A model generated the notes under the pieces. That model had not been told where the DNA came from. It did not search any database and was given only the letters and a program-made list of their open reading frames with translations. Positions 2,503 to 52,465 of a stretch of 64,000 nucleotides of DNA are shown here, piece after piece. The stretch comes from an uncultured Gammaproteobacteria bacterium (GTDB lineage Bacteria; Patescibacteriota; Microgenomatia; Levybacterales; UBA12049): assembly GCA_964512695.1 (NCBI GenBank), contig CAZEJU010000005.1, positions 5,668 to 69,667 on the forward strand, read 5' to 3'. A program made the position numbers and the translations under genes. Each line of letters begins with the position of its first letter. The first letter of the stretch is position 1.

Positions 2503-2503
2503 A

Positions 2504-2911: not shown

Positions 2912-2938
2912 AACCCAAAAATAAAAAAGCGTATATTA

Positions 2939-14546: not shown

Positions 14547-14590
14547 AAAAAGATGTTTGTTACCTAAGATTCATTATATAATATGCAGAT

Positions 14591-25258: not shown

Positions 25259-25259
25259 A

Positions 25260-25766
25260 TTAGTCTACTACCCACCCTAAAAATGAAAAACCGTTTGAAT
25301 AAGTTGACCCATCGTTCTCTAAATCTACTTTTTTACTACTATACTTTCCAACAAGGTACTTACTATCATAGTTATTATCATACCAAAAAAAAGGAAAGAA
25401 ACCTCTGTGTACACTCCCATTTTCTATAGTATATCCGTCAGGAGACTTCCTATTATTATTTAATACGAGTCGTGAAGCATCTTCATAAGAGATAGCCATA
25501 CTATTATTTGTTTTTACATTATAGATATATAGTTGAGGTTCGGTATACGTTTCATATGGATAGTATGTCTCAGTATAATCTCGTTGATACTTTTGCAAAC
25601 GATTATTTCTTACTAAGTAAAAATACTCACGTCCCGAACTGTAAAGAAAATTATAACGAGGTTTATGAAAAAAGTTTGGAATATATATCGCAATAACTAT
25701 AAAAAGGATCATAAATAGAGGTATCGAGAAACCAAAAATAAGAGGAAGATTTTTTTTATTAAACAT
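25260..25766 (-). CDS. Hypothetical N-terminally anchored Tyr/Asn-rich protein
   Basis: 168-aa ORF with an N-terminal TM helix. It is adjacent to and co-directional with the 24284..25258 ORF. Confidence 0.4.
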   Translation of the reverse strand: MFNKKNLPLIFGFSIPLFMILFIVIAIYIPNFFHKPRYNFLYSSGREYFYLVRNNRLQKYQRDYTETYYPYETYTEPQLYIYNVKTNNSMAISYEDASRLVLNNNRKSPDGYTIENGSVHRGFFPFFWYDNNYDSKYLVGKYSSKKVDLENDGSTYSNGFSFLGWVVD

Positions 25767-25878
25767 ATATTTAATCGTTAGTAAGTAATGTACTTTATCC
25801 TATATCTAAAAATTAATCAGCAAATTATCTATCATTGTGCTATCAAATAGATAGCCATATAAACTTAATGTTTATATA

Positions 25879-26967
25879 TCAGTCTTTTCCTATGGTAATA
25901 ACGATATCAAACTCAGCTGACTGAGTGGCTTCCTCTACTATTATAAGTGGAAAGTCACTTCTTAGCACATTCTGAATATCCTTAACTAATTCAGAAGAAA
26001 ACTGTTCGGAGTATGTGAGGGTTGTTTGATTTTCTAAAGCTCGTGCGTTGCCAATCGATATATTTTTATAACCACTAGCATTTAGAATTAAACCCATTTC
26101 TCCCGCCTGACCTTTAATACCAGAACCATTAAGTATCTGAATTTTAATCGCAGACTTATCGGGGGATTTTATGGTAGGACTTAGCAGAACAGTGGGTGAA
26201 AGTGTAAGAGTCACGTCAGATGTGGTTAAAGAAAGTTGTGGAGCATGATCTTGATCTTTAGCGAATGGATTCGTGACTAAATTACGCTGTATCAATGCGT
26301 AAATGGAAACTGCGACTAGTATTACCAAACCAATGACCAATGTAACATACTGATATTTTAAATTAGGCTTTGGAGTCTGTATGTTTAACTCTGATTCAAT
26401 ACCATCTGCTTCTTCTTTTGAAATCTTTTCAGCTTTTAAAAGATTGTATTTGTTTAGTACACTGCCGTTCTTCAGAATTCCTTTCGCATCAGTTACAGAA
26501 ATGCTTGAAACTTCTCTATTTGTTATTATGCTTAATGGTACAACTGCGCTAACACCAATATTTTTCACTTTCAAAGTTTCTATAACTACTTTGTAAAGAT
26601 CGCTATTTGCGGCTAAAAGTTCAATTTTTTTACCTTTTTTTACCGTTAATTTTGCTATTTTTGCTCTATTTATAGGAATGTATTGGTAAAAGCGTTTCTC
26701 ATTTTCTCCTTTTTTTTCAGAATCCTCTATCTCTTCTGAAAAAACAAACTGGTTGGAAAGAACAATAACAGCTTTTCCTTTAAGCTGGCTATTACTTATT
26801 ACCTCATTCAAACCCTGAGTAAAAAGTTTTTCATCTGAAAGTTCTCCATAGGTAACAGCGCCAGGAGGAAAAGTATACACGATAGTTTTCCCGGAAGGAG
26901 GTATAATCTGAAGAAGAGTCGTACTGATAAACACCAGGAATTTACCCTCTGGAAGGACCATATACAC
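25879..26967 (-). CDS. Bitopic membrane protein with a C-terminal LytR_C-like domain; architecture is cytoplasmic N-domain, then TM, then extracytoplasmic LytR_C
   Basis: TM helix (YVTLVIGLVILVAVSIYALI). C-terminal KIQILNGSGIKGQAGEMGLILNASGYKNISIGNA...TTLTYSEQF resembles the LytR cell-envelope-related C-terminal domain. Confidence 0.45.
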   Translation of the reverse strand: MYMVLPEGKFLVFISTTLLQIIPPSGKTIVYTFPPGAVTYGELSDEKLFTQGLNEVISNSQLKGKAVIVLSNQFVFSEEIEDSEKKGENEKRFYQYIPINRAKIAKLTVKKGKKIELLAANSDLYKVVIETLKVKNIGVSAVVPLSIITNREVSSISVTDAKGILKNGSVLNKYNLLKAEKISKEEADGIESELNIQTPKPNLKYQYVTLVIGLVILVAVSIYALIQRNLVTNPFAKDQDHAPQLSLTTSDVTLTLSPTVLLSPTIKSPDKSAIKIQILNGSGIKGQAGEMGLILNASGYKNISIGNARALENQTTLTYSEQFSSELVKDIQNVLRSDFPLIIVEEATQSAEFDIVITIGKD

Positions 26968-27000
26968 TAGTGTAGCAAATTTGAAAAATCATCGCGAGAT

Positions 27001-27504
27001 TTATCTTGAAGCAGATATTGTAGTTGAGCCTTCAGCTCTGCAAGCCGTTACAGTTACTATATTATTTGCATCAACAACAATCCCGTATCCTGTTGAGGTC
27101 GAACTCGACGACAGGCTTGGGTCGACAGGAATTGTTTTTAAGTATTTAACGAGCGGAGTCGCAAGATTTGTGCAGCTTGAAGCTGTGACACTGCATCCTC
27201 CTGTTGAAATTGCACATCCCGATGAAGCTGATCCAAGCTGGACTTGTGACATTCCGGTAGAAAGCCCCGACGGAAGAGAACCACCGTTATCTACTATATA
27301 AGCATGGACCGCAGTAAGGATCGTATTTACATCTGAGGTGCGTCGTGCGTTTCTCGCGTCTTGAAATCTTTGCGCTGGATTAAGTGCTACGAATACTACT
27401 ACGGCCAAAGTTGCTATAATAACTATTACGATTAAAAGTTCAATAAGAGTAAAACCTTCTTTGGAATTTTGGAGTTTGAATTTAAAATTTAAATATTTCT
27501 TCAT
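27001..27504 (-). CDS. Type IV pilin (class III signal peptide, probable major pilin)
   Basis: MKKYLNFKFKLQNSKEG|FTLIELLIVIVIIATLAVV is a prepilin cleavage/methylation motif (G-F-T-L-I-E). Start moved to the internal Met so the leader is 17 aa. The C-terminal region is Cys-containing. Confidence 0.75.
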   Translation of the reverse strand: MKKYLNFKFKLQNSKEGFTLIELLIVIVIIATLAVVVFVALNPAQRFQDARNARRTSDVNTILTAVHAYIVDNGGSLPSGLSTGMSQVQLGSASSGCAISTGGCSVTASSCTNLATPLVKYLKTIPVDPSLSSSSTSTGYGIVVDANNIVTVTACRAEGSTTISASR

Positions 27505-27560
27505 AGGCAGAATATTATATAAAGTTATCGTATCGTGTAGTGCATAAAAAATCAAGTAAT

Positions 27561-27944
27561 TTATATCTCTTTCCAACTTGAGATCGTCAAATAAGATCCT
27601 CCTCTGTTTACTACAGCCTGGACTGTTCTTCTGTAATCTGTCGCGGTAGTTGTGGTAGTAACTGTGTAATTAGATCCTGCTTGAGACACGGTTATGGTAC
27701 ATATTCCTTCAGGTCGAGATATTGTTCCACCTGCATAAGACGCGCTATTTCTAAGCTTTAAAAGCGCGTCTTCCATACACCCTTCTATAAAAACCAAAGC
27801 ACCTTCGCCTTTCGTAATCGCTAGTGAAACTTGTCCTTCACCTACACCAAGCTGAGCAACGGTTATCATAACACCCGAAATGACGACAGTTAATATGAGG
27901 ATAATTGATATCGCTACATATCCTTGTTCAGATTTTTTTTTCAT
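27561..27944 (-). CDS. PilX-like minor pilin (hydrophobic N-terminus without the canonical GFxxxE)
   Basis: 127 aa starting MKKKSEQGYVAISIILILTVVISGVMITVA, lying inside the prepilin gene cluster. Confidence 0.45.
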   Translation of the reverse strand: MKKKSEQGYVAISIILILTVVISGVMITVAQLGVGEGQVSLAITKGEGALVFIEGCMEDALLKLRNSASYAGGTISRPEGICTITVSQAGSNYTVTTTTTATDYRRTVQAVVNRGGSYLTISSWKEI

Positions 27945-27945
27945 A

Positions 27946-28494
27946 TTAATTACCCCTTAATTCAGCACTACTCTCAATAACCACTGAATCCTGATACTCC
28001 TGACGTGCAGCCACAAAAGAGGCTGCTACTGTCATTACAAACTGTATGTGTTTCGATTTATTGTCAACTGAGCTATAGTTTGTAAATGTTAGAAGTGTAA
28101 TAACAGTATTACTAGAGTTAATAGCTACTGCACTACCGACACCTTGTTTAATTCTTATATTCCCTCCTGATAAATCAATTACAGTCGGATTCGTCCCAGG
28201 CGTTGAAGTTGCAAGGGAAAGAGATGTTGCAGAAACAGAATTTATACCCGTAGCATTCCTAATCTCATATTTGATTCGTTCAGTAATATACCGTGCGTTC
28301 GCATTTACCTCTTGAGCAGTCGCACTTTTTACGCCTAATTCAACACTGTTCCAGGCAAAAGGAACAAGTGCAGATAAAATAATTGTTATTAAAGCAATGT
28401 ACAGAATAAGCTCGATTAAGGTAAAACCACGTTCATGTGAACTGAATGTGATAAAACCATTATTATTTTGTGAAATTATATGTAGACTTCGCAT
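27946..28494 (-). CDS. Prepilin-type minor pilin (PilW/pseudopilin-like)
   Basis: ERGFTLIELILYIALITIILSAL N-terminal methylation motif. Confidence 0.7.
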   Translation of the reverse strand: MRSLHIISQNNNGFITFSSHERGFTLIELILYIALITIILSALVPFAWNSVELGVKSATAQEVNANARYITERIKYEIRNATGINSVSATSLSLATSTPGTNPTVIDLSGGNIRIKQGVGSAVAINSSNTVITLLTFTNYSSVDNKSKHIQFVMTVAASFVAARQEYQDSVVIESSAELRGN

Positions 28495-28495
28495 A

Positions 28496-30004
28496 TTATT
28501 GTGGCTTAAGTATTAAAAACTCGGACGAACTATTTGTATCAGCGATAAATATACGATCATTGCTCGTATCATATACAACTTCTTTTGGAAAATTTACAAT
28601 ATTTAGTGATCCCAATGCCGGCAAACCTGGTAATGAATCTAGATTACTGCCATTGATAACTAAAAAATCATTTGTTGCCGAATTAGTTCCTAGAAAAAGT
28701 AGATTATTCCCAAAACTTATAGAGTTTACATCTGCTCCAATTTCAACAGTTGATTTAAGCAAAAGACTTGTTGGTGTGGAAACATCAATTGAGTAAAGTT
28801 CTGGCGCTCCGCTGGAAACTCTTCCCACCAAAATTCTATTCCCTCCGGCATTATAAATCGCAATCGCGTTTGCAGGATTGTTTCCGCTATCAAGATTAAA
28901 AATAGCATCACGCGCAAGCGTTGTAAGATTTATTACTTGTACTTCAGCAGCATTATCATCAGATGTAACAAACGCATAACTTCCTACAATAACTACCCCA
29001 GTAGGAGTTCCCGTTATTCCAGAACCAGTCCCGGTAATTGTGGGAGAAGCCGGATTTGAAATATTAAACTTAATAAACTCATTACCTCCATTCCTTACCA
29101 TATATAAAAAGTTTCCGGAAATCGCCAGAGCAATAGCATCAGCGTTATCATTACCACTGTTAACGACCGTTAAATTTACGGAATTCAACGTTGCAGTTGA
29201 AAGGCTTGTTGGAGAGCTAATATCTATAATCTGCAACTCCTGAGAGTTATTAGTTGATGCAATATATGCGTAATTACCATTAATAACAATATCATTTACG
29301 TCACCTCCAAGTTCGCGTTGGCAGTTTACACACATAGAGGGAACAGTAGTATTTGATACATCAATTGAAAAAAATTCAGTACCAACTGAACTAGCACGAC
29401 CTAAAAAAATATAGTTACCAGATCTTACAAGAGATATTCCATTAGCAGCATTTGCACCGCTATTTGCTAGTGTTAAATCGAAGCTCGAATCAAGAGATGG
29501 ACTTGCCCAATTTCCCACAATTGCCTTTCTCCAATCCGATAAATAACTTGAGAGGACAACAGAATTAGATCTTGTAGATGTAAAGTTCCAAGAAACTGTT
29601 GATGTAATTTTCTTAGTCAGAGGGTCAACAGTACCCCCACTTGTCACAATATTTCCGTTTCCATCCCTTGAAACATCAGATACTGTTATGACTCTCGTAT
29701 ACTTACTACTTAGAATATTATTGCTTCCTGAAAAACTCCAGACATTTCCCACTCTGGAAATACCTGTCCCAGGACTGTTTACCAAACTCGCAAAATTCTG
29801 GTTTTTAATTGAACGGGTTGCCTCAATACCTTCAGATGCATACTGTGTAGCTATGGTTTGCTCTTCTCCAAGCCTATTTGAGTCTAATCCTTGCAGCATA
29901 ACCATGACTGCACCAGATGCTAATATCATAAACAAAGCAGTAGCTATAATAACTTCAATAACCGAAAATCCCTTTTGGTGACACTCTTCAAAATATAATT
30001 TCAT
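28496..30004 (-). CDS. Large prepilin-headed protein with about 6 beta-propeller-type (LVIVD-like) repeats; candidate pilus tip adhesin (PilV/PilY1-like function)
   Basis: QKGFSVIEVIIATALFMILASGAVMV prepilin N-terminus, then repeated ~45-aa units (..ASTNNSQELQIIDIS.., ..RASSVGTEFFSIDVS.., ..RVSSGAPELYSIDVS.., ..TNSATNDFLVINGS.., ..DTNSSSEFLILKP). Confidence 0.6.
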   Translation of the reverse strand: MKLYFEECHQKGFSVIEVIIATALFMILASGAVMVMLQGLDSNRLGEEQTIATQYASEGIEATRSIKNQNFASLVNSPGTGISRVGNVWSFSGSNNILSSKYTRVITVSDVSRDGNGNIVTSGGTVDPLTKKITSTVSWNFTSTRSNSVVLSSYLSDWRKAIVGNWASPSLDSSFDLTLANSGANAANGISLVRSGNYIFLGRASSVGTEFFSIDVSNTTVPSMCVNCQRELGGDVNDIVINGNYAYIASTNNSQELQIIDISSPTSLSTATLNSVNLTVVNSGNDNADAIALAISGNFLYMVRNGGNEFIKFNISNPASPTITGTGSGITGTPTGVVIVGSYAFVTSDDNAAEVQVINLTTLARDAIFNLDSGNNPANAIAIYNAGGNRILVGRVSSGAPELYSIDVSTPTSLLLKSTVEIGADVNSISFGNNLLFLGTNSATNDFLVINGSNLDSLPGLPALGSLNIVNFPKEVVYDTSNDRIFIADTNSSSEFLILKPQ

Positions 30005-30438
30005 CTGCTAACTACTCCTTGAGAATTAATCACAAATTGTTTTGAGGTATCGTTACTAGTAATAGAGTATGTGCCTGTAGTGCTGGGTAAACCAGTAACT
30101 TTTGTAAAAACAACTTCAGTAAAGCCTGCAATAGATATATTGGAGTTGACCCTGAATGTTTCATCAAAAGCTGCATTGCGTGTAGCATACGAATTTCCTT
30201 GAAAAAGAGTTAAGGTATTTGATCCAAAACGCACTCCCCAATTACCGTTTTGCCTACCCATCATCGCATAGATTTGAGCTTTTCTCGCTTCTCCTAAGAA
30301 TTGATCCTGTACATTGGCTACAGCGTTTTGCGTCAAGAAACGGGAAAAGAAAACTACTGAGAATGTGCCAATAGAAATTATTATCGCGATAACTAAGAGT
30401 AATTCAATAATGGTAAAACCAGCAGCTTTTCTGTACAT
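30001..30438 (-). CDS. Prepilin-type minor pilin (GspH/FimT-like)
   Basis: MYRKAAGFTIIELLLVIAIIISIG motif. Start moved to the internal Met to remove the 68-nt overlap with pilC. Confidence 0.65.
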   Translation of the reverse strand: MYRKAAGFTIIELLLVIAIIISIGTFSVVFFSRFLTQNAVANVQDQFLGEARKAQIYAMMGRQNGNWGVRFGSNTLTLFQGNSYATRNAAFDETFRVNSNISIAGFTEVVFTKVTGLPSTTGTYSITSNDTSKQFVINSQGVVSR

Positions 30439-30448
30439 ATCATGACAC

Positions 30449-31534
30449 TTAGCGCTTGATACTACTACTAAACTGATAAATCGGTCCAATAATGGAAACT
30501 GCAATAAAGGCAACAATCAACCCTACTATTATTAATATTACTGGCTCAAGAATTGTTGAAAGATTCTTGGAAGTACTATCAACTTCATCTTCAAAATAAT
30601 CCCCTAAGTAACTGAATGTCTCGTCAAGTTTACCCGTTTTTTCTCCAACGCCCAGCATCCTGACTGCAATAAGCGGAAAAAAATTAAATTTTGAATGATC
30701 AAAAATGCTCTCAAGTGTTTTGCCTCTCTCTACCCCTTTTTGAATCCTGTCTATATATTCCCTGAAGATCATATTTTGCGTGGATTCTTTTTGAATTTCC
30801 AGTGCGCGTGTAATTGGGATTGAACTTTGAAGCAAAGTACCCATATTCCTGCAGATTGACGCAAGCTGTACATTTTGTATAAACGAACCAATTACAGGAA
30901 GGCTTAGCAAAAATCTATGCCATAAAGGTTTTGCAAATTTTTGGGAGATAGTTACTTTAAACGCGATCACACAAATACCTAAAAATGCGAAGATATAAAT
31001 CCCATAATTGTTCATTACGTTTGCAAACCAAAGAAGAATTCTTGTTGTTATCGGAAGCTCTACATCCAGGGAATTAAATAGGTCAACTAACTTTGGTAAA
31101 ACAAAAATACTCAAACCAATTGCGGCTGTAAACGCGACTAAAAGCACAATAGTTGGATAGAGTAATGCGCTCTTAATTTTTTGCGAGAACTCATGGGTCT
31201 TTCTTAAATGTGTTGCAAGGTAATCCAGATTCTTCTCAAGGTTTCCTGATTGTTCCCCGACTTTTATAAGCTGCACATAAAATGGATCAAAAAATTTTGG
31301 ATAAAAAGATAATGCCTTATCAAACTCTTGCCCATTTACAACTTCTTCGCGGATTTTATGCAAAACCTTTCTGAAATATACATTATTGTTCTGCCTAGAA
31401 ACTATTTCGATTGATTCAGCCAGGGGTATTCCACTTTTAAGCATAATGGAAAGGTGCTTCGTAAACGTCAGTCTTTCAACCGCACTGACACCTCCAAAGA
31501 TTACTATGTTATCAGACATCTTAGGCAGTTTCAT
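30449..31534 (-). CDS. pilC: Type IV pilus inner-membrane platform protein PilC (GspF family)
   Basis: Two T2SS_F repeats, 3 TM helices and the typical length of 361 aa. Adjacent to pilB. Confidence 0.85.
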   Translation of the reverse strand: MKLPKMSDNIVIFGGVSAVERLTFTKHLSIMLKSGIPLAESIEIVSRQNNNVYFRKVLHKIREEVVNGQEFDKALSFYPKFFDPFYVQLIKVGEQSGNLEKNLDYLATHLRKTHEFSQKIKSALLYPTIVLLVAFTAAIGLSIFVLPKLVDLFNSLDVELPITTRILLWFANVMNNYGIYIFAFLGICVIAFKVTISQKFAKPLWHRFLLSLPVIGSFIQNVQLASICRNMGTLLQSSIPITRALEIQKESTQNMIFREYIDRIQKGVERGKTLESIFDHSKFNFFPLIAVRMLGVGEKTGKLDETFSYLGDYFEDEVDSTSKNLSTILEPVILIIVGLIVAFIAVSIIGPIYQFSSSIKR

Positions 31535-31605
31535 ATTTGAATTTAAAATTTGGACTGTTGAATACAGAATTTAATTATTAAAATCTATACTTCAGATTCT
31601 AGAGT

Positions 31606-33300
31606 CTACTCGCGCGTTGCACGTAATACTTCTTCAATAGTTGTTATTCCTTCAGCTATTTTTTCCAGACCGTCTTCGGCCATTTTTCTCATTCCTTCTT
31701 TTATCGCCATCTGTTCAATTGTGTCAGAATCTGCTTTTTGGACAATTAAAGCTCTGATTGCCTCATTCATTTCTAGAACTTCAAAGATACCTATTCTTCC
31801 CATGTACCCACTCATGTGGCAAACAGAACATCCTTTTCCTTTATATATCCTTATTGATGATTTACTTCCGTAAATTTTTCTGATCAAGTCACGGCTAAAA
31901 TCTTTTAGAAGTTCCGACAGCTCGATGTCTAGAGAATATTTACACTTCTCACAAATTTTACGAACCAAACGTTGCGCGATTACAACATTTATTGTCGATG
32001 CGACTAAAAACGGTTCTACTCCCATGTCAATAAACCTTGGAACCGCTGTCGCCGCGTCATTTGTATGCAGTGTAGAAAGGACAATATGTCCTGTTAAAGC
32101 AGAATTAATTGCAATGTCCGCAGTCTCATCATCTCTGATTTCACCAATATATATGATATTCGGGTCTTGCCTCAAAATTGAGCGCAATCCTTCCGCAAAT
32201 GTTAAATTAGTTTTTGCATTAACTTGAATCTGGTTTATACCCTCCACGTCATACTCAACGGGATCTTCAATTGTCGCGATATTTTTGTCAGGTGTGTTTA
32301 AAATTTTAAGAATTGCATACATAGTAGTTGTTTTACCGCTTCCAGTTGGCCCCGTGGACAATATCATACCGTACGGTTTATTCATGGCGTTAACCACTTT
32401 CTCATGGTCTTCTTTGCTCATTCCCAGATTAGATAAACTAAACTGCCTGAAATGTGAAGCTAAAAGCCTTAAAACAGCTTTCTCCCCATGAACTACCGGC
32501 ACCATTGAGACACGGATATCCAAATCTTCTTCAGGAAGTTGAACCTGTATCTTTCCATCCTGTGCTGAGGCATGCTCATCAGTTTGTAATGAAGCTAAAA
32601 CCTTAATCCTTAGAACCACCTGCTTATATACCTCCAAAGATAAGGTCAAAACTTCGTGCATAATCCCGTCAATCCTAAACCTTACCTGCGCGTTATCTTT
32701 TGCAGGCTCTATATGAATGTCAGACGCGTTATTCCTATATGCGTATTCGATAAGTAAATCCACTATTTTTATAATCGGTGCTTCATAGATTTTACCGTCT
32801 CCTAAAATATCAACTTGTTCAGCTAAAAGCGCATCGAATTTTTTTTGCAGATCTTTTTTATAGATTTTTAGCGATTGCTCAATATCACGCCGTATAGCAA
32901 AATATGGAATTACTTTTTTATTCACTTTGCGTTGGATAAATTCAAGCAATTTGAGGTTCGAGGTGTTCGCAAGTGCAATTTTAACATTATCTGGATTGTC
33001 TTGAAAAACGATAGCACTAAACTCTTTCGCGAGTTGCTCGGGTATTATATACGAGGCGCTATCAGGAATAGAAACAGTCTGAAGATTAATATACGGAACA
33101 TTAATCATATCTGCAATGATTCTGCCAAGCCCAACAGAATCTATTAAATCATGGTCGATAAGTGCTTCAGCAAACGATACATTTTCCTTCTCACATTCTG
33201 TAAATGTTTTGATCAGTTCTTTTTCTTCAATAACTTTCAGTTCTTTTAAAGAGTTCAATAAATCCTTGGCGAATGGTTCCATACTTTTTAATCGTATCAA
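31606..33300 (-). CDS. pilB: Type IV pilus assembly ATPase PilB (GspE family)
   Basis: N-terminal GSPII_E_N-like region, Walker A LSTGPTGSGKTTT, Asp box and His box, and a tetracysteine motif CEKCK...CSVCH. Confidence 0.9.
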   Translation of the reverse strand: MIRLKSMEPFAKDLLNSLKELKVIEEKELIKTFTECEKENVSFAEALIDHDLIDSVGLGRIIADMINVPYINLQTVSIPDSASYIIPEQLAKEFSAIVFQDNPDNVKIALANTSNLKLLEFIQRKVNKKVIPYFAIRRDIEQSLKIYKKDLQKKFDALLAEQVDILGDGKIYEAPIIKIVDLLIEYAYRNNASDIHIEPAKDNAQVRFRIDGIMHEVLTLSLEVYKQVVLRIKVLASLQTDEHASAQDGKIQVQLPEEDLDIRVSMVPVVHGEKAVLRLLASHFRQFSLSNLGMSKEDHEKVVNAMNKPYGMILSTGPTGSGKTTTMYAILKILNTPDKNIATIEDPVEYDVEGINQIQVNAKTNLTFAEGLRSILRQDPNIIYIGEIRDDETADIAINSALTGHIVLSTLHTNDAATAVPRFIDMGVEPFLVASTINVVIAQRLVRKICEKCKYSLDIELSELLKDFSRDLIRKIYGSKSSIRIYKGKGCSVCHMSGYMGRIGIFEVLEMNEAIRALIVQKADSDTIEQMAIKEGMRKMAEDGLEKIAEGITTIEEVLRATRE

Positions 33301-33407
33301 AACATAAATCCTCAGACAAGAAAGACATAGTAAGTGTCTCTAGATCAATATTCATTTTTGCGGTGCTATAAGAAAGTTTGCAGCTGAATTTTTCTAGTAA
33401 AGGAGAA

Positions 33408-33716
33408 TTAAGTACCAATCACGGTATTAATCTTTGTAATTACATCATTGATTGATAGGTCTGATTTTATTATATAATCACGCGCTCCTAATTTCATTCC
33501 ACGATCAATATCTTCTTTTTGCCCTAAATTTGAAGCAATAATAACAGGAATCCTTTTCCAGTCCGGATTATTTTGAATTTCTTCTAAAACCGTAAACCCG
33601 TCTTTTTTAGGCATCATAAGATCCAGTAACATAACATCTGGGACAAATGTTTTGAGCGTATCAATTGCCTCCTGGCCGTCTGCTACTAATGTAACATCAA
33701 ACCCTTCCTTTGCCAT
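33408..33716 (-). CDS. CheY-like receiver domain protein lacking a canonical AUG-initiated N-terminus (see findings)
   Basis: Receiver motifs are present (VMLLDLMMPKKDG; conserved K in ASNLG). In-frame codons upstream of the ATG encode PIIKNITAEDDKFLANAYRVK, i.e. the missing beta1-DD segment, with no ATG/GTG/TTG before the upstream stop. Confidence 0.6.
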   Translation of the reverse strand: MAKEGFDVTLVADGQEAIDTLKTFVPDVMLLDLMMPKKDGFTVLEEIQNNPDWKRIPVIIASNLGQKEDIDRGMKLGARDYIIKSDLSINDVITKINTVIGT

Positions 33717-33927
33717 TTTTACGCGATATGCATTAGCGAGGAATTTATCATCTTCAGCTGTTATATTTTTTATAATTGGCTAAAAGCTTTATCGGATGAT
33801 GCAATTTTTACTTCCTAAACCTGATGTACTTCTTATGGAAAATATAGACATCGGTTTTCTATCAGCTTTTTTCGCATTTCCATAAATTTATTCTTTCAAG
33901 TTTTACAGTCCTAACACTCTTAAAGTG

Positions 33928-34308
33928 TTATAAGTAGCTTTTAACCTCTTCTGCTATTGCTGACAAACTTGCATCTGATTTGACCAGAAAATCTATGGCT
34001 CCCATTTCTTTCGCCATTTTTTTATCTTCTTCTTGCGATAAATTCGAAGTGATAATTACTTTTGTGTTTATCCCTTTTTCACGAATAACTGATAGTACCT
34101 CCCAACCATCAATACCAGGCATCATGATATCTAAAAGGACTAAGGAATAAGTCCCTGATTGCAATTCCTTTAATCCTTCCTCACCGCTGAAGACCACGTG
34201 AGCAGTAATGCCCCCTTTTTGAAGCTTTATCTCCATCGCTTTTCCCATTGCTTTTTCGTCCTCAATAATAAGAACTTTTTTTGTATTGTTACTATTTACA
34301 CTTTCCAA
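33928..34308 (-). CDS. Single-domain response regulator (CheY-like receiver)
   Basis: KKVLIIEDEKAMGKA..., LVLLDIMMPGIDGWEV, conserved K (SNLSQ..K). 126 aa. Confidence 0.8.
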   Translation of the reverse strand: MESVNSNNTKKVLIIEDEKAMGKAMEIKLQKGGITAHVVFSGEEGLKELQSGTYSLVLLDIMMPGIDGWEVLSVIREKGINTKVIITSNLSQEEDKKMAKEMGAIDFLVKSDASLSAIAEEVKSYL

Positions 34309-34359
34309 ACTGTAATATTCACCCTCTTTCTTTTTATATTTTCTCTTCTGTTTGAGAAT

Positions 34360-34782
34360 TTAATAGAGCTGCACTTCTTTATCTTGCAAATCAAAAATCC
34401 CATTTAATTTTTCAACTATTTCTTCTAGGGAATTTTCTGATTTAACAAGATAATAAGACGGCTGGTCGGTTACTACATGAGTTAACCTTTCGTCATTTGT
34501 ATCAAAATTCGTAAGAATAACCACTGAAGCATATTTACCCCATTTATTCTCACGTAACTTATGTAACATAGTCAGACCATCCATTTTGGGCATTTCAATA
34601 TCCAGTAAAATTGCGTTCGGATGATTTTTTAATGCAGCATCCAGCCCAGTTGCTCCGTCCCCAGCTTCTAAAACTAAAAACCCTAAGCTTTCTAGTTTCA
34701 CGGCAATTGCTTGCCTAAGAGAGGCATCATCTTCAATGATAAGAATGGACTTACTCGTTTCCAAATTATTTTGATTTGCCAT
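34360..34782 (-). CDS. Single-domain response regulator (CheY-like receiver)
   Basis: KSILIIEDDASLRQA..., ILLDIEMPKMDGLTML. 140 aa. Confidence 0.8.
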   Translation of the reverse strand: MANQNNLETSKSILIIEDDASLRQAIAVKLESLGFLVLEAGDGATGLDAALKNHPNAILLDIEMPKMDGLTMLHKLRENKWGKYASVVILTNFDTNDERLTHVVTDQPSYYLVKSENSLEEIVEKLNGIFDLQDKEVQLY

Positions 34783-35170
34783 ATAAGCATTCTTTTAGAG
34801 CCTCAACTATTTGATCTAAGCGAAAATTCGCCTTAACAAAGTACTTATTCACCCCCAGCTGCATATACATTCTCACTTTTTCTTCGCTTGCCGTATTACT
34901 TACAACAAAAATTGGAATATGTTTCCATTTTGAATCAGAACTTTTGATTTTTGTAACCAAATCTAATCCGTCATCTTTACCTAACAAATAGTGGTCTAAC
35001 CAAATTCCATCCACCTGACTAAGTTCTTCCAAATAAGACATGGCTTGTTGTACACTTCTTGCGGTAGCCACATTAATATTGTTATTCTCAAGCTTTATCT
35101 TAATCACTTCTAACAATGGAATTTCATCCTCAATAACTAAAATCGTTTTTGTCTCCATAAAGATAGTCAC
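34766..35170 (-). CDS. Single-domain response regulator (CheY-like receiver)
   Basis: KTILVIEDEIPLLEV..., IWLDHYLLGKDDGLDLV. 134 aa, overlapping the next receiver gene by 17 nt. Confidence 0.75.
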   Translation of the reverse strand: MTIFMETKTILVIEDEIPLLEVIKIKLENNNINVATARSVQQAMSYLEELSQVDGIWLDHYLLGKDDGLDLVTKIKSSDSKWKHIPIFVVSNTASEEKVRMYMQLGVNKYFVKANFRLDQIVEALKECLYGKSK

Positions 35171-35179
35171 CTCCTTCCT

Positions 35180-37381
35180 TCATTTTAATCTTCTATTACC
35201 GTCTTTCTTCACCATTCCAGAAAGAGGCAATAACACAAAAAACGTTGTACCTTTATTTTCTTCCGAATAAAACCATATTTTACCTCGGCAATGATCTATC
35301 AATGATTTTACAAGATACAATCCTAACCCAGTTCCATCAGTATTTTGTACTCTGACATTATCTGCCCTAAAAAGTTTTTCGAAAACTTTTCCTTGTTGCA
35401 TGGTGGTTATTCCGATACCATTATCCTCAACTTCTATAAGAAGACTATTCTCTTCTGCTTTTACCCCACCAACTGCTTCTTCCTGCTGGATAGTTTTTAA
35501 AGAGATTTTTATTTCTCCGTTTTCATTGGTGTATTTGATTGAATTTGTAAGCAAGTTCTGGAGTATGATTGTAGTTAAGTTAGGATCAAGCATGATTTGG
35601 GGCATATCATCTTTCTCGAGGACTACTCTTAATTTTTTCTCATCTATCATAGGCTTTGACTCATCCAGGATAGAACGGGTTAATCTCACAATATCAACCA
35701 TTTCAGGTTCAATCATGTAATTGCCTGTTTCAATTCTCGACACATTCAGTAGTGCATTTACCAGCTTTGACAGGCGCTGACTTCCTTGATAGGCTTCCTG
35801 GATAAACTTTTTTTGCTCATCTGTTACATTACCTGCATCTCCAGATAAAAGAAGTTCACAATACCAATTGATAGTTGAGAGAGGCGTACGCAGCTGATGA
35901 GATGCTAAAGAGATAAATTCTGACTTAGCCCTGTCTATTTGCTTTTCTCTCGTAACATCATGCAGAACAGTAACCGTGCCCAATAGTTTATTCCTCAGTA
36001 GAATGGGAGTAATCGTAACTAATACCGCAATCTTTTCTCCATTTTTTTTGGTATAGATCACTGCACTGCTGATCTTCTCTTTACGGGATAGCACTTTATT
36101 TATAATTCTTTCCGCAGGAGGTATGACTCTTCCATTTTCATCTTCCGCCTTAATAGCTTCAATTAATTTTCTCTCTACCAGATCCTGTGGGGTATATCCT
36201 AATAACTCTTCTATTGCTTGATTTATCCTCACAATTTGTCCCTTCTCATCTGTGACGATCAGTCCGTCCCCAATACTTGATATAAGAACTTCATCATATA
36301 TGCGTTCTTCCTCAAGATGGGTTATATCCTCTTCTGTCCCTATAAAGCCAATTATCCTATCTTCCTTTTTTATGGGTGAAATATGGGTAATCACGGTGTA
36401 ATATTCACCATTTTTTCGTCTATTCTGTAGCTCCCCATCAAATCCTTCACCTGCTCGTATTGTTTGCCATAGTTTTTGGTACAAGTCTTGAGTCATAATA
36501 CCACCCCATAAGCGAGGCGTATTATTTTTCATCTCCTCAAAACTAAAACCTGTCATTTGCTGAGCTTTTTTATTTGCAAAAACAACAAACCCGTTTACAT
36601 CAGTTATCACAACGTGATTGCGGGAGTCTTGAATTGCTTGCAACATAATATTCTTCTCTGTTTGTTCATTATTAAAATCAGATTCTGTTAAAATAGTATC
36701 ATTTATTCTTGGATAGTGTTCCTCAAAACGCATGTTCTGAAAAGGAGTATTTCTGCGGGCTAGAAGCACATATGTCTCATCAATAAACCCCTGCGGACCA
36801 CAAATAAAGAAAAGATCCTCCGCAAAATTGATTCCTGATGGAAAAAGTTCATTTGATATTTTTCCAATATGGTTTACAAATACGATATTTTGCTGTGCAG
36901 TTATCCTGGAAAGCTCTTCTGAGAAAGCGCTTTTTTCAGAAGCTGAGTTAACATACATAAGTGTTAAATTTGGATTCATCTCTTCCTGGAGAGAGTTAAT
37001 AATTGAAAGAAATGGTGCAATCCCGACTCCGCCTGCGATCATAACTATATTTTGTTTTTGATTTTTAAGTGAATAGGAACTCCCAAATGGACCGAGTATT
37101 TTTACCCTACTTTGAAGTGGAAGTTCTAAAAGCGTTTTTATATATCCTGAATCTGAATTGCGAAAAAGAATAGAGCAGGATTTTTTATTCAAAGAACTGG
37201 AGATAATAGAGAAAGCTCTTCTCCCTCCTTTTAGATCCGGGTATAAAAGCTCGGACACAATTACCCAGACATATTGACCGGGAGAAAAACTAAAATCTTG
37301 TTCAAAGAAGAAGGTAATGACTGTCGTGTCTTTTGCAACTGTTTTCTTTTCCTGAATTGTCGCCCACATTTCATTACTCAT
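35180..37381 (-). CDS. Hybrid sensor histidine kinase: N-terminal ferredoxin-NADP-reductase-like FAD/NAD(P)-binding oxidoreductase module, then 2 PAS domains, HisKA and HATPase_c
   Basis: FNR-family motifs RRAFSIISS (RxYS FAD site), MIAGGVGIAPFLSII (GGxGxxP NAD site) and FFICGPQGF. Two PAS-like segments. H-box ASHQLRTPLSTI, N-box LLTNSIKYT, G1 VEDNGIGI, G2 GTGLGLYLVKSL. Confidence 0.8.
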   Translation of the reverse strand: MSNEMWATIQEKKTVAKDTTVITFFFEQDFSFSPGQYVWVIVSELLYPDLKGGRRAFSIISSSLNKKSCSILFRNSDSGYIKTLLELPLQSRVKILGPFGSSYSLKNQKQNIVMIAGGVGIAPFLSIINSLQEEMNPNLTLMYVNSASEKSAFSEELSRITAQQNIVFVNHIGKISNELFPSGINFAEDLFFICGPQGFIDETYVLLARRNTPFQNMRFEEHYPRINDTILTESDFNNEQTEKNIMLQAIQDSRNHVVITDVNGFVVFANKKAQQMTGFSFEEMKNNTPRLWGGIMTQDLYQKLWQTIRAGEGFDGELQNRRKNGEYYTVITHISPIKKEDRIIGFIGTEEDITHLEEERIYDEVLISSIGDGLIVTDEKGQIVRINQAIEELLGYTPQDLVERKLIEAIKAEDENGRVIPPAERIINKVLSRKEKISSAVIYTKKNGEKIAVLVTITPILLRNKLLGTVTVLHDVTREKQIDRAKSEFISLASHQLRTPLSTINWYCELLLSGDAGNVTDEQKKFIQEAYQGSQRLSKLVNALLNVSRIETGNYMIEPEMVDIVRLTRSILDESKPMIDEKKLRVVLEKDDMPQIMLDPNLTTIILQNLLTNSIKYTNENGEIKISLKTIQQEEAVGGVKAEENSLLIEVEDNGIGITTMQQGKVFEKLFRADNVRVQNTDGTGLGLYLVKSLIDHCRGKIWFYSEENKGTTFFVLLPLSGMVKKDGNRRLK

Positions 37382-37436
37382 AAGAAATAACGTGGACTTC
37401 AGGAGTCTCTTATAATAGTAGTATATACTAATTCAA

Positions 37437-37967
37437 TTACTTTGTTACATGATTTTCTGATACTTCATCGAGTGTTTCCATACCAATAAAAAATTCTACT
37501 TCTCCTTTAACATCAAGTATGGGAGAAATCCTGAGTAGAACAGGATAAAGCCGTCCATTTTTGTGTTTGTTGGTTACTTTTACCATGATAGCTTTCTTTT
37601 GCACTGCAATTTGATCCCACATCTCTTGATAGAATTCTCTTGTCATTTGGTTACCCCACAAGGCTGGAGTCTTCCCGAGTATCTCATGTGAAGAGTAACC
37701 GGTCGCAGCAACTACCTGTTCGTTTACATATAAAATAACACCATTTTTATCAGTTATAATAACTTGTCGTTCAATATCTTTTGAAATTGAGTTTATAAGT
37801 CCACAGCGCTCGCATTTTATATCAAATAACTGGAGCATGATCTGTTCTATGACAAGCAATTTGTTACATTTTGTACATCTATGTTTCTTCAGTAACTGTG
37901 TCTTAGCAACTTCAAGAGGAAATGAAACTGGTAAAAGACCTTGAGTACTACCTCGGTTATTGTTCAT
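37437..37967 (-). CDS. Zinc-ribbon (CxxC-x17-CxxC) + PAS domain protein
   Basis: CTKCNKLLV...CERCG followed by a PAS fold (ITDKNGVILYVNEQVVAATGYSSHEILGK...). 176 aa, immediately upstream of and co-directional with the sensor kinase. Confidence 0.55.
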   Translation of the reverse strand: MNNNRGSTQGLLPVSFPLEVAKTQLLKKHRCTKCNKLLVIEQIMLQLFDIKCERCGLINSISKDIERQVIITDKNGVILYVNEQVVAATGYSSHEILGKTPALWGNQMTREFYQEMWDQIAVQKKAIMVKVTNKHKNGRLYPVLLRISPILDVKGEVEFFIGMETLDEVSENHVTK

Positions 37968-38145
37968 ATTGTACTTAAAGGTATTCTACCAAAAAACTCG
38001 TAGGTATTGCAGCGTTTGCCTTAGAGTTACTGAATCCATCTCTTCTATATTTTTGAGCTTTGCCTATATACCTTCTTTTCACGATAGTTGATCAATTAGT
38101 AACAAGTATTATTCAATTCCCAAAAAAAGAGTTTAAATTATTATA

Positions 38146-40896
38146 TCAACCCAGATCACTATTGAGATGACATTTTTTATATTTCTTCCCTGACCCACAC
38201 CAGCAGGGATCATTCCTGCCTGGTTTTTTAGGTTTAGAGCTAGATACGTTTGCAGCATTACCTCCTGCAGTACCTGAATGTGCGAGATTAGTTCTATTTT
38301 GCGTACCTGGTTTTTTCTGAGAATCTCCACTAACTTCACTCACGGGAGTATTCGTATGTATGTGCTGATGAAACTCCGGCGAAACCTGGACTTGTACTTT
38401 AAATATTCTGTGAACAATCTCGTCATCGACAGAGAACATTAATTGCTCAAACATACGAAAAGCTTCATTTTTATATTCTACCAATGGATCTTTCTGAGCA
38501 TAACCGCGTAATCCTATTCCTTGCCTCAAATCATCAATTGCATCGAGATGATCCATCCATAAACGATCAATTGATGCTAAAAATACATATCTTTCAATCT
38601 GTTTTGTTGTTTCTTTCCCTACTTGTTTCTCTTTCTTATCGTAAAGATCTTTTGCTAAATTTTGTAAAAATTCAATCTTCTCTTCTGGCATATGTACTTG
38701 CTGTAACTGTTTCATAAGTTGTTTTTGCGAAGATTCATCAAATGGTATAATGCTTTGAAAACTACTTACTATTCCTTCGTTTCCTGAGTCCACACTATCA
38801 GCTGACTCTGATGAGGCAAGAGAAATATGCACAATTGTTTCAATAGCTTTATCCACTCTCTGTAATATTTCTTTTTTCGCAAACTCGTCATCTGAATCAG
38901 TTTTTAATAAAATATCTCGTCGTAATGCATAAATAACTTCACGTTGTTTATTTAATACATCATCATATTCCACCAAATGCTTTCTAATATCGAAATTAAA
39001 TCCTTCTACTTTAACTTGTGCATGCTCTATGGAGCGTGAAACAAGTGGATGCTCGAGAGGAACATCCTCAGGCATATTAAATCTCGTCATTAATCCTGAA
39101 ATTCTATCTCCTCCGAAAAGCCGCATTATATCGTCATCTAATGATACATAAAAACGCGATTTTCCCGGGTCTCCCTGTCTTCCAGATCGTCCACGAAGTT
39201 GGTTATCAATACGTCGAGATTCATGTCGCTCCGTACCAATAACATATAATCCGCCTAACTCTAAGACTTCTTTATGCCCCTTTTCCCACTGTTTCCACTC
39301 TGTCGTTCCAAGCATGGGACGACCATCAGTATGTTTGGGACTCTCTCCACCAAGAATAATATCAACTCCCCGACCTGCCATGTTTGTTGCTACAGTCACT
39401 GCGCCTTTTTTCCCAGCTTGGGCAATAATTTGTGCTTCCCGAGCATGGTTTTTAGCGTTAAGTACTTCATGCTTTATACCTCTACGGCGCAATAGCTGTG
39501 ATAAGATTTCATTTTTTTCTATAGACGTTGTACCCACGAGAACTGGTTGACCTTCAGCATGCGCTTTTTCAATGTCATCAACAACAGCAGTTAATTTCGC
39601 ACGGGTGGTTTTATAGACAGCATCTGACTGATCCAAACGAGCCAAAGGATTATTTGTAGGAATAACAACAACGTCCAATTTATAGATCTTCTGGAATTCT
39701 TCAGCTTCTGTCACTGCTGTACCAGTCATACCAGCAAGTTTTTCATACATACGGAAATAATTCTGCAGTGATACTGTAGCAAGAGTTTTAGACTCTCTCT
39801 GAATAGGGACATTTTCTTTTGCTTCAATTGCTTGATGAATACCTTCTGATAATCTTCGTCCTTCCATAAGTCGTCCAGTAAATTCATCCACAAGGATAAC
39901 TTGATTATCACGTACAATGTATTCTTTCTCTTTATGAAACAATGTCCGGGCTTTTAAGGCTGCTTCTAAATGATAAACTGTATCAAAATCTTTTTCATAG
40001 ATATCCGCTATTCCGTACATTTTTTCAATTTTTGCGATACCATGATCTGTTAAATGCGCAGTTCGAAGTTTTTCATCAATTTTATAGTCGATTTCTGGAG
40101 TCAAACGCTGTACTACTTTTGCATATTCATAATATTTTTCGGATGGTGCTTCATCTGGAGCAGAAATAATATGCGGTGTTCTCGCTTCATCTATTAATAC
40201 CGAATCCACTTCATCAACAACTGCATAATAGTAATCTCGCTGAACTATATCTTTACTATCTTGTGCCATATTATCGCGGAGATAGTCAAAACCAAATTCA
40301 GAATTAATGCCATACGTTATATCTGTTTGATATGCTTCTTTGCGTGTGATAGGCCGGAGATGTGATAATCGATAGTCAATAGCGTTTTCATCCGTGTACT
40401 CTGGATCAAAAAGAAAAGAAGCATCATTTATAATTGAGGACACAGATATACCCAGAAGGTGAAATACTTGTCCCATCCAGCCCGCATCACGACGGGCAAG
40501 ATAATCGTTTACAGTCACTAGATGGACATTCTTACCTGTAAGACTATGAAGGTATAATGCAAAAATCGCTGTGAGTGTTTTTCCTTCTCCTGTTTTCTGT
40601 TCTGCAATCTTTCCACGTGATAAGGCAATTGCAGCCATTAGCTGTACATCATATGCGTGTATACTTAGTTTCCTTTTTGTGGCTTCACGTACGAGTGCAA
40701 AAGCCTCTGGTAGTAAACTATCAAGGGATTCCCCAGAAGTAAACCGTTCTTTAAATTCCGCAGTTTTTTTGGGAAAATCTTTCTCCTTAAGAGATGAAAG
40801 TGTATCTTCTAACGCATTAATTTGGTCAACAATAGAGCGAAGTCTTTTTACTTCTTTTTCATTCGAGTCAAATAGACTACTCAGGAATCGTACCAT
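38146..40896 (-). CDS. secA: Preprotein translocase ATPase SecA
   Basis: DEAD-like motor motifs, 916 aa, and a C-terminal zinc-binding tail CWCGSGKKYKKCH. Confidence 0.95.
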   Translation of the reverse strand: MVRFLSSLFDSNEKEVKRLRSIVDQINALEDTLSSLKEKDFPKKTAEFKERFTSGESLDSLLPEAFALVREATKRKLSIHAYDVQLMAAIALSRGKIAEQKTGEGKTLTAIFALYLHSLTGKNVHLVTVNDYLARRDAGWMGQVFHLLGISVSSIINDASFLFDPEYTDENAIDYRLSHLRPITRKEAYQTDITYGINSEFGFDYLRDNMAQDSKDIVQRDYYYAVVDEVDSVLIDEARTPHIISAPDEAPSEKYYEYAKVVQRLTPEIDYKIDEKLRTAHLTDHGIAKIEKMYGIADIYEKDFDTVYHLEAALKARTLFHKEKEYIVRDNQVILVDEFTGRLMEGRRLSEGIHQAIEAKENVPIQRESKTLATVSLQNYFRMYEKLAGMTGTAVTEAEEFQKIYKLDVVVIPTNNPLARLDQSDAVYKTTRAKLTAVVDDIEKAHAEGQPVLVGTTSIEKNEILSQLLRRRGIKHEVLNAKNHAREAQIIAQAGKKGAVTVATNMAGRGVDIILGGESPKHTDGRPMLGTTEWKQWEKGHKEVLELGGLYVIGTERHESRRIDNQLRGRSGRQGDPGKSRFYVSLDDDIMRLFGGDRISGLMTRFNMPEDVPLEHPLVSRSIEHAQVKVEGFNFDIRKHLVEYDDVLNKQREVIYALRRDILLKTDSDDEFAKKEILQRVDKAIETIVHISLASSESADSVDSGNEGIVSSFQSIIPFDESSQKQLMKQLQQVHMPEEKIEFLQNLAKDLYDKKEKQVGKETTKQIERYVFLASIDRLWMDHLDAIDDLRQGIGLRGYAQKDPLVEYKNEAFRMFEQLMFSVDDEIVHRIFKVQVQVSPEFHQHIHTNTPVSEVSGDSQKKPGTQNRTNLAHSGTAGGNAANVSSSKPKKPGRNDPCWCGSGKKYKKCHLNSDLG

Positions 40897-41039
40897 AGCA
40901 CTTCATTTTAACATAGTGTAGGCTCAAATAAAAGTTAACCAAGTTTATTCGTATAAACTCATATCGAAATCATATATTAGAAAAAACAGTAAATGGTTAA
41001 TCGCTGGGAATCATATTTCCTAAAAAAATCCCCTACCGA

Positions 41040-41075
41040 AAAGGGCAGGGGATTTACCAATCGATCAATTGGTAT
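41040..41075 (-). terminator. Rho-independent terminator (minus strand): 8-bp GC-rich stem (AAAUCCCC/GGGGAUUU) with an internal loop, followed by a U7 run
   Basis: Minus-strand RNA reads 5'-AAAUCCCCUGCCCUUUUCGGUAGGGGAUUUUUUUA-3'. It sits about 25 nt downstream of the micro-ORF stop. Confidence 0.55.
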
Positions 41076-41098
41076 TGATCAAAAAACGTAAAGAAAAG

Positions 41099-52442: not shown

Positions 52443-52465
52443 GTATAAATGTTTTGTAAAGTTTG

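Follow-up and report, generated by a model that had tools for sequence, protein, structure and literature searches.

A two-component kinase–receiver module encoded at the head of a type IV pilus gene cluster in a Microgenomates genome

Few surface machines of the candidate phyla radiation (CPR) are as well conserved as type IV pili, and the pilus is the organelle that episymbionts use to find and hold their hosts. Here, a stretch of 64,000 nucleotides (the window; contig CAZEJU010000005.1 of assembly GCA_964512695.1, positions 5,668 to 69,667) was analyzed, which comes from an uncultured, ultra-small bacterium placed by GTDB within the Levybacterales (Patescibacteriota; Microgenomatia). It contains a gene cluster in which a sensor histidine kinase and four receiver-only response regulators (REC1 to REC4) precede the genes of the pilus assembly motor (pilB), its platform protein (pilC) and the pilins. 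Since the order kinase, receiver, pilB is kept in every related pilus locus examined, it probably corresponds to a previously undescribed way of switching a pilus motor. We lean towards the reading that this Microgenomates type IV pilus operon is headed by a two-component switch of its own, with a receiver acting on the motor; whatever goes in this text beyond gene content and synteny is our interpretation of them. The main value of such a module would be as a testable handle on the control of host attachment in the CPR, and more precisely as an entry point to ask which signals switch attachment on and off.

All 13 open reading frames (ORFs) between positions 27001 and 37967 follow each other in an unbroken run on the minus strand, as deduced from the ORF list and Pfam, with intergenic gaps of -68 to +211 bp. 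A first-pass annotation, made from the letters of the sequence, had described this region as an 11-gene cluster on one strand with short gaps. Its genes, strand, spacing and coordinates hold, and Pfam domain searches confirm each of the items that it listed, but the number of genes has to be raised to 13.

Conservation of the kinase–receiver–pilB order

Nine loci (L159 to L167) were sampled through PilB alone, with no reference to kinases, a sample that comprises only Microgenomates taken from the matches listed at 56% identity or more. Every one of these loci encodes a HisKA kinase, one to three receiver-only proteins, PilB, PilC and pilins, with about four pilin-like genes per locus, including one of ~600 amino acids (aa). 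A recognisable N_methyl pilin occurs in eight of them, whereas the pilin-like genes of L159 have no Pfam match. The nine loci correspond to six lineages, between which PilB is at most 65% identical, and the genes that flank the block are unrelated and differ in every lineage, which indicates that the kinase–receiver–pil block has been inherited as a unit. Judging from this synteny, with the same order in all nine loci, the arrangement is not a product of chance.

A second set of loci was ascertained through the kinase, by a contig profile search with a full-length kinase alignment and with generic H-box/N-box patterns. The search returned mostly unrelated PAS kinases and no match containing the FNR-like domain that opens the window kinase, and it yielded L002, L008 and four non-CPR loci with a histidine kinase, a receiver and PilB. 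Matching kinase–receiver–pilB orders are found in the kinase-ascertained loci L008 (Levybacteria), L002 (Saccharibacteria) and L144, and a variant in L108, where a receiver lies 27 bp before pilB, the genes from PilB through the pilin follow, and an FNR-kinase is encoded at the far end of the operon. The first-pass annotation had made the coupling of the signalling and pilus genes depend on their synteny in relatives, which is present in the nine PilB-ascertained loci as well as in L008, L002 and L144. Its more specific expectation, an FNR-type kinase and multiple CheY-like receivers next to pilB, survives as far as the kinase–receiver–pilB order is concerned and fails for the FNR input and the number of receivers.

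Among pil-linked loci, the sensor part of the kinase is variable (none recognised, a HAMP domain or one PAS), and in L008, the closest pil relative, the kinase lacks the FNR and PAS1 domains. The number of receivers varies from one to four, and the minimal version, a single kinase and a single receiver before pilB, occurs in L160, L161 and L166. This variability, together with the mostly non-pil location of the FNR family (see below), indicates that, at the level of gene order, the conserved core is any kinase plus a receiver of the type closest to pilB (P-type, that of REC4) plus pilB, whereas three features are particular to this lineage: the FNR-like input, the gene for a Zn-ribbon-PAS protein and the presence of four receivers. 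In L144, a 134-aa Hpt protein (positions 14294-14698 of that locus) is encoded immediately upstream of the pilB-proximal receiver, and beyond it come a PAS kinase, two additional receivers and a glycosyltransferase of family GT2. By its gene content, this locus is a phosphorelay version of the kinase–receiver–pilB design, and its Hpt gene stands just where it would be expected if the pilB-proximal receiver were the end of the phosphate path. Outside the CPR, a PAS kinase and a receiver-only gene near or upstream of pilB were found in the bins L027, L040 (Phycisphaerales), L049 (Dehalococcoidales) and L056, with an HD-GYP-type (HD_5) protein between the two genes in L040; the theme may thus be broader than the CPR.

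A separate observation concerns L159 (Levybacteria, GCA_016182185.1), whose positions 1-3674 contain a CheB-CheA-CheC/X-CheD-CheY cluster ~6 kb upstream of the kinase-receiver-receiver-pilB block. No flagellar genes were seen in the 21.7 kb of this locus, which leaves the pilus block as the sole motility apparatus in the vicinity of the Che cluster.

The kinase, the receivers and the proposed switch

The window kinase (35180-37381; like all the genes of the cluster, on the minus strand) is a protein of 733 aa, or 729 aa in its public form, made of an FNR-like region (~1-225), two PAS domains (PAS1, ~240-355; PAS2, ~360-480) and a HisKA/HATPase_c core (481-733). All its Pfam domains score above their gathering cut-offs, including HisKA (E 1.4e-16), HATPase_c (E 4.5e-25) and both FNR-family models, FAD_binding_6 (23.8 bits versus a cut-off of 21.1) and NAD_binding_1 (E 9e-8), in agreement with the flavin-reductase-fused kinase proposed in the first-pass annotation. 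The two hallmarks of the FNR-like superfamily are found in the N-terminal region, a six-stranded FAD-binding beta-barrel with the R-x-Y/F-S/T motif and an NAD(P)H-binding Rossmann domain with G-G-x-G-x-x-P. Across 32 kinase homologues, the motifs RxFS, GGxGxxP and (C)G(P) are kept, and the His of the H-box (H495 in SHQLRTP) is invariant. More precisely, the R55-A-F57-S58 stretch is conserved and shows no variation at F57 and S58, and within AGGVGIAPF residue G118 is invariant in a 17-sequence N-terminal alignment and at least 90% conserved in the 32-sequence one, whereas P123 is invariant in the former and, like G120, at least 90% conserved in the latter. An AlphaFold2 (AF2) model of the kinase (mean predicted local distance difference test, pLDDT, of 86.6) shows a beta-barrel followed by a Rossmann-type topology for residues 1-220, with values of ~90 for the beta-strands between residues 4 and 99. 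The best sequence relatives of this N-terminal domain in the PDB are the reductase modules of T4moF, BenC and flavohemoproteins, with which it shares the FAD_binding_6 plus NAD_binding_1 fold and motifs, whereas the 2Fe-2S or haem partner domain of such modules is missing in the kinase. Taken together, alignment and model suggest that the FNR-like domain likely binds flavin and NAD(P)H.

No membrane segment is predicted in the window kinase, either from its Pfam content or from the AF2 model. Foldseek searches with the whole model were dominated by PAS-kinase structures and added nothing on the FNR-like domain; the kinase core resembles most that of HK853 (33% identity, TM-score ~0.7 on the target). 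A LOV-like binding of flavin by PAS1 was considered and rejected, as the resemblance by eye of NTPRLW to NCRFLQ is not accompanied by the other flavin-contacting Asn/Gln positions. NCBIfam gave no name for the kinase or the pilins, and no paper describing a flavoreductase-fused PAS kinase was found in a literature search.

Kinases of this kind are not rare. A first search gave more than 100 close matches, where the six members with a named source all belong to Patescibacteria, and the FNR-like plus PAS1 module defines a family of 358 clusters at 50% identity (E <= 1e-30). In the loci examined, FNR-PAS kinases are nearly always followed by at least one stand-alone receiver. By their sequences, they could be regarded as candidate redox sensors, in a class of considerable size that has no name. 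The gene that heads the cluster (37437-37967) encodes a 176-aa protein with a CxxC...CxxC Zn-ribbon, for which Zn_ribbon_Com and DUF2310 fall just below their cut-offs, and a single PAS domain (E 1.7e-13) that has in common with PAS1 of the kinase the signature TPxLWG...FY..W. This gene was seen again just in L121, where a homologue with 49% identity precedes an FNR-kinase by ~1 kb.

The four receivers, REC1 (34766-35170), REC2 (34360-34782), REC3 (33928-34308) and REC4 (33408-33776, counted from an ATT codon; the ATG ORF starts at 33716), measure 122-140 aa, contain no Pfam domain other than Response_reg, and keep the equivalents of D12/D13, D57, T87 (S), Y106 and K109 when aligned with E. 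coli CheY. The stand-alone receivers of relatives were clustered against these four and then aligned with E. coli CheY, from which two clear orthogroups resulted, A-type (REC1) and P-type (REC4), the B and C types (REC2 and REC3) being optional. A-type receivers sit directly after PAS-containing kinases: orthologues with 38-44% identity occupy this position in L008 and L162-L164, and a receiver of L165 (L165_A) also aligns with this type. L159 and many FNR-kinase loci have B-type relatives (40-57% identity), whereas the C-type has an orthologue with 61% identity in L008, where it is the pilB-proximal receiver, and one with 40% in L108. P-type orthologues (50-70% identity) are found 33-133 bp upstream of pilB in L159, L160 and L162-L164, and L165-L167 have a receiver in the same slot, which in L165 aligns as P-type. 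Within this type, hardly any variation is seen in helix alpha1 and on the beta4-alpha4-beta5 face.

From this arrangement we infer the following steps, which are conjectural from sensing onwards. The kinase would read the redox or NAD(P)H state of the cell through its intact-looking FNR-like flavin module and its two PAS domains, possibly assisted in sensing by the Zn-ribbon-PAS protein, and would then autophosphorylate and transfer the phosphate to the stand-alone receivers. The pilB-proximal receiver, the obvious candidate for the output, would bind the motor in its phosphorylated state, either PilB itself or a partner such as PilC or a PilM/GspL-like protein, and would alter the pilus extension activity post-translationally. 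Receivers of the A, B and C types would shape the response, either as sinks that compete for phosphate or as outputs in parallel. None of the versions of the block encodes a DNA-binding or enzymatic output domain, which makes transcriptional control unlikely as a direct output and points to a protein–protein one.

A more ambitious and only tentative version of this proposal extends it to Microgenomates in general, and probably to other Patescibacteria: the P-type receiver would be hard-wired to PilB and the kinases would be interchangeable, the FNR-PAS kinase of the window placing pilus extension under the control of reducing power. Were this the case, extension would be throttled directly by reducing-power status, following an energy-taxis-like logic with a type of sensor not yet described, and the three further receivers would be sinks or parallel outputs.

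Relation to known systems and alternative readings

The system that would work most similarly is that of EmvR and ColS in Xanthomonas. EmvR is a single-domain regulator that binds PilB and represses its ATPase; it interacts with the classical kinase ColS, and its proposed place is downstream of this kinase (PMC11973254), whereas the receiver-only DrdR binds both PilB and PilT (PMC13507683). These systems share with the role proposed for the P-type receiver a receiver with no output domain, a kinase that is not of the CheA type (ColS, in the case of EmvR) and a direct action on PilB, for which the conserved adjacency of receiver and pilB is what would argue here. EmvR and DrdR are, however, orphans encoded outside the pilB operon, unlike the operon-encoded P-type receiver, and the likeness is drawn from function and not from sequence. 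Moreover, their hosts are diderm Proteobacteria with no FNR-like kinase, whereas the window comes from a monoderm CPR lineage with a flavoreductase-fused kinase. Thus, the principle of a receiver acting on PilB is already known, and what is new with respect to EmvR/ColS is its encoding within the operon, its occurrence in the CPR, the dedicated receiver orthogroup and the undescribed kinase. If the proposal were right, the mechanism of EmvR and DrdR would be extended from the Xanthomonas orphans to an operon-encoded, phylum-wide design.

Stand-alone CheY-like receivers are also known to control pilus extension in the Pil-Chp system (ChpA, PilJ, PilI, PilG, PilH) and in cyanobacterial Tax1 (PixL, PixG, PixH), where antagonistic or sink receivers occur and where cyanobacterial receivers bind PilB1. 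The window resembles them in having several such receivers, four PilG/PilH-like genes, but both systems rely on a CheA-type kinase, CheW and methyl-accepting chemotaxis proteins (MCPs), for none of which a match was found among the ORFs scanned over the whole 64 kb, as the first-pass annotation had stated for the cluster. The only kinase of the cluster is instead a soluble HisKA/HATPase_c protein with FNR-like and PAS domains. PilS-PilR, known in Geobacter and Myxococcus, is likewise a two-component system whose genes adjoin those of the pilus; PilR is a regulator with sigma54 AAA+ and helix-turn-helix (HTH) domains that acts on pilA transcription, and PilS a multi-pass membrane sensor of pilin. 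In the window, by contrast, the receivers carry no AAA+ or HTH output and the kinase is soluble. The lack of CheA, CheW and MCP, of a sigma54/HTH output and of a membrane kinase agrees with the earlier view that this is neither a described Pil-Chp nor a PilS-PilR arrangement.

Among solved structures, the closest relatives are found in HK853-RR468 of Thermotoga maritima, where a HisKA kinase is paired with a stand-alone receiver. The window kinase has the same H-box His in HisKA followed by HATPase_c, and RR468 is the closest solved relative of REC4 (E 1.7e-21), whereas HK853 differs in that its sensor is periplasmic and in that FNR-like and PAS domains are missing from it. To our knowledge, HK853-RR468 has no link to pili. 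Redox sensing by a flavin is established as a control of signalling output for NifL and Aer; in the known flavin sensors (NifL, Aer, MmoS) the flavin is held by a PAS domain, whereas in the window kinase a complete two-subdomain reductase module lies upstream of the PAS-PAS-kinase part.

With regard to the CPR, type IV pili of cultivated Saccharibacteria drive host binding, motility and competition, in a study that mentions no kinase and uses the word regulator just once (PMC11623550). A literature search combining Microgenomates, type IV pili and histidine kinases found no paper, and the kinase–receiver–pilB arrangement goes unmentioned in the literature searched, including a review on PilB cofactors and the Saccharibacteria pilus study.

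Several points weigh against the proposed switch, starting with REC4 itself. Strand beta1, helix alpha1 and the acidic pair are missing from its ATG ORF, with Response_reg covering only profile positions 20-100, and the gene caller behind the public gene calls gives just a truncated form of 102 aa. The in-frame sequence upstream of this ATG, IIKNITAEDDKFLANAYRVK, matches residue for residue the orthologues that begin MAKILVAEDDKF, and therefore the ATT at 33776 occupies the position of the ATG of relatives. REC4 thus shows ATT in place of ATG and the polar residues N and T in beta1 (KNITA versus KILVA), which may mean that it is weakly made or decaying in this genome; either it uses a weak AUU start, or it is truncated and inactive, or the codon is a single-base assembly error. 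Moreover, the order in L008 is A-P-C-pilB, so that the C-type receiver, and not the P-type, abuts pilB. A circuit rewired or decaying in this organism, where REC4 would have lost its start and its function and REC3 (C-type) would be the output as in L008, could explain these features. It has to face, however, a REC4 whose remaining sequence is intact, with all the catalytic residues and neither frameshifts nor internal stops, and shows 62-70% identity to the nearest orthologues (L008, L159, L162, L164) and 50-58% to those of L160 and L163. AUU is, in addition, a usable although weak start codon in bacteria, and the ATT may derive from a single-base error in a metagenome-assembled genome. A decayed circuit is therefore held to be unlikely, yet worth keeping in sight.

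Other points against the switch concern transcription and the kinase. REC4 is preceded by the largest gap of the cluster (211 bp, 33717-33927), where an internal promoter might lie; no consensus promoter-like or terminator-like site was found in it, and the gap before pilB measures 107 bp. Over the sequence scanned, promoter-like sites were fewer than in shuffled sequence and terminator-like sites about as many as in shuffles, so that neither scan, with no signal above shuffled controls, informs about transcript boundaries, and the operon is a putative one. The kinase cores are 38-47% identical throughout, with no clear pil-specific orthology, and on this measure orthology of the window kinase core to pil-linked kinases cannot be separated from orthology to FNR-kinases elsewhere. 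Only three of ~17 independent metagenomic FNR-PAS kinase loci have pil genes within 10 kb (~14 have none), which indicates that a redox input is not specific to pili. Binding, phosphotransfer, co-transcription and pilus function are, in turn, steps that the proposal reads out of sequence, and PilT and PilD, on which the dynamics of the machine would depend, are not encoded in the window.

Two inverted repeats in the 211-bp gap deserve a mention on their own, AACACT..AGTGTT just past the REC3 stop and ATGGAAA..TTTCCAT, neither of which was flagged as intrinsic-terminator-like. Positions 25000-41500 were also compared with Rfam, with no credible RNA element as a result and no match in this gap, which argues against riboswitches in the gaps of the cluster.

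Among other alternatives, the receivers could form a phosphorelay or phosphate-sink network where a distant DNA-binding regulator would set pil transcription, with a logic similar to that of PilS-PilR. The occurrence of several receivers per kinase, the Hpt protein of L144 and an extra orphan receiver in the window (15552-15917) would fit such a network. No Hpt protein or DNA-binding regulator is found, however, in the nine PilB-ascertained blocks or in the window, the minimal loci L160, L161 and L166 have just one kinase and one receiver before pilB, and the Hpt of L144 would feed the pilB-proximal receiver, as fits a receiver that is the end point. A distant output seems, in consequence, improbable.

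It could also be argued that kinase, receivers and pil genes are neighbours with no functional coupling, the two-component module controlling other processes such as a general redox adaptation. The location of most FNR-PAS kinases away from pil genes, the 211-bp and 107-bp gaps and promoter and terminator scans with no signal of co-transcription are consistent with this possibility. Such neighbours would hardly keep their order in six independent lineages with unrelated flanks, nor would a dedicated receiver orthogroup be expected to abut pilB; by our estimate, a receiver would be expected by chance directly upstream of any one gene with a probability in the order of 1% per genome. Mere proximity is thus very improbable. 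Finally, the least probable of the alternatives is a kinase that monitors the pilus instead of the environment, as a PilS-like feedback on the state of pilin or assembly with receivers tuning the latter. Short kinases of relatives (372-385 aa, no recognised sensor domain) could be membrane-embedded like PilS, but for the window kinase no membrane segment is predicted, its model is that of a soluble protein with FNR-like and PAS domains, and no sigma54-type regulator is present.

The pilus genes and the rest of the window

The switch proposed at the head of the cluster would act on a machine whose genes could be assigned to the type IV pilus/type II secretion class through their assembly ATPase and platform protein. 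The ATPase, of the PilB/GspE family (31606-33282, 558 aa), matches T2SSE (E 1e-130) and, in its N-terminal part, MshEN (E 8e-9). NCBIfam models for GspE and PilB both give ~523 bits, and ComGA 255, all of them below every equivalog cut-off, so that PilB and GspE cannot be told apart by these scores; identity to Microgenomates PilB is 57-68%. When 24 Microgenomates PilB sequences were compared by eye with RLGxxLLxxGLI..., which we take to be the c-di-GMP-binding MshEN motif, the corresponding positions read LxExLxxxDLISDENLG, with no conserved Arg and with an invariant Asp (D45) where the second Gly of that motif would be expected. The MshEN-like domain may now serve to bind a protein partner instead. 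Some Microgenomates PilB (P0144, P0145, P0160, P0162) have N-terminal Lys/Pro-rich extensions of 80-100 aa. The possibility that the longer variants (624-659 aa) were receiver-PilB fusions was rejected, as their extensions are Lys/Pro-rich low-complexity tails.

The platform protein PilC/GspF (30449-31534) contains two T2SSF repeats (E 3e-59). Class III signal peptides (G|F-x-x-x-E) are found in the prepilins, with N_methyl detected in four genes and leaders read from the sequence. Minor prepilin 1 (30001-30438; start inferred from the sequence) carries the leader MYRKAAG|FTIIE and a weak NCBIfam similarity to ComGD and GspH, and minor prepilin 3 (27946-28494) is recognised by N_methyl (E 1.2e-6). 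Between them, a large minor prepilin of 502 aa (28496-30004) combines N_methyl with LVIVD beta-propeller repeats (E 2.6e-19), a slot that in relatives is taken by a protein of 591-653 aa, which has either different domains (DUF4082/lectin-like) or no Pfam domain. By its sequence, this LVIVD protein is a candidate tip adhesin, apparently fast-evolving. A PilX-like small protein (27561-27944), with a hydrophobic N-terminus, no G|FxxxE motif and no Pfam or NCBIfam family, has homologues in the matching slot of L008, L106 and L108. The last gene of the run is a pilin (27001-27504) with the leader ...NSKEG|FTLIE, detected by N_methyl (E 1.5e-7) and by IV_pilin_GFxxxE above its cut-off. As listed ORFs, three of these genes are longer, with 31606-33300 for PilB, 30001-30516 for minor prepilin 1 and 27001-27576 for the pilin.

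The next gene (25879-26961, minus strand) lies outside the range of the first-pass annotation, which had placed PilT, PilD and PilMNO outside the window. The scan of the 64-kb ORFs agrees for PilT and PilD, which may be encoded elsewhere in the genome, but not for PilM. The product of this gene is predicted to contain a PilM/GspL-like cytoplasmic domain, a transmembrane helix and an extracellular LytR_C domain (Pfam). Although its sequence similarity to PilM is marginal, an AF2 model of the N-terminal domain (pLDDT 80-90, from a shallow 4-sequence alignment) matched in Foldseek PilM (5eou, 2ych) and cyto-EpsL/GspL (1yf5, 4pht) with E values of 3e-7 to 1e-5, the best being 2.8e-7 for PilM and 3.3e-6 for cyto-EpsL. 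By its predicted fold, a PilM/GspL-type component would thus be present in the pil block. A LytR_C gene follows the pilin in six of the nine PilB-ascertained loci (L159, L160, L162, L164, L166 and L167), and the Saccharibacteria locus L002 has a PilM_2 plus SH3 protein in this slot. As in GspL, and in line with the GspL/PilM-PilN components, the PilM/cyto-GspL fold is followed by a single transmembrane helix, whereas the extracytoplasmic part is LytR_C in place of the ferredoxin-like domain of GspL/PilN, so that the modelled protein resembles a counterpart of GspL that would be anchored to the cell wall and serve a monoderm pilus.

The window has a G+C content of ~36%, and homologues of its genes carry labels such as Patescibacteria, Levybacteria, Daviesbacteria and similar, which identifies its host as a CPR bacterium of the Microgenomates type. 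Its remaining ORFs are housekeeping genes (SecA, SerRS, GroES/EL, LepA, PFK and glycogen enzymes), together with the orphan receiver-only gene mentioned above (121 aa, minus strand), which is outside the A, B, C and P types and adjoins an RsmB/F methyltransferase gene on the opposite strand. Two adjacent S8 subtilases are encoded at 50598-53944, next to an ORF of 1126 aa (53973-57353) that Pfam does not recognise, and a sortase (61876-62601) comes after a protein of 778 aa (59524-61860) that contains a Baseplate_J-like segment.

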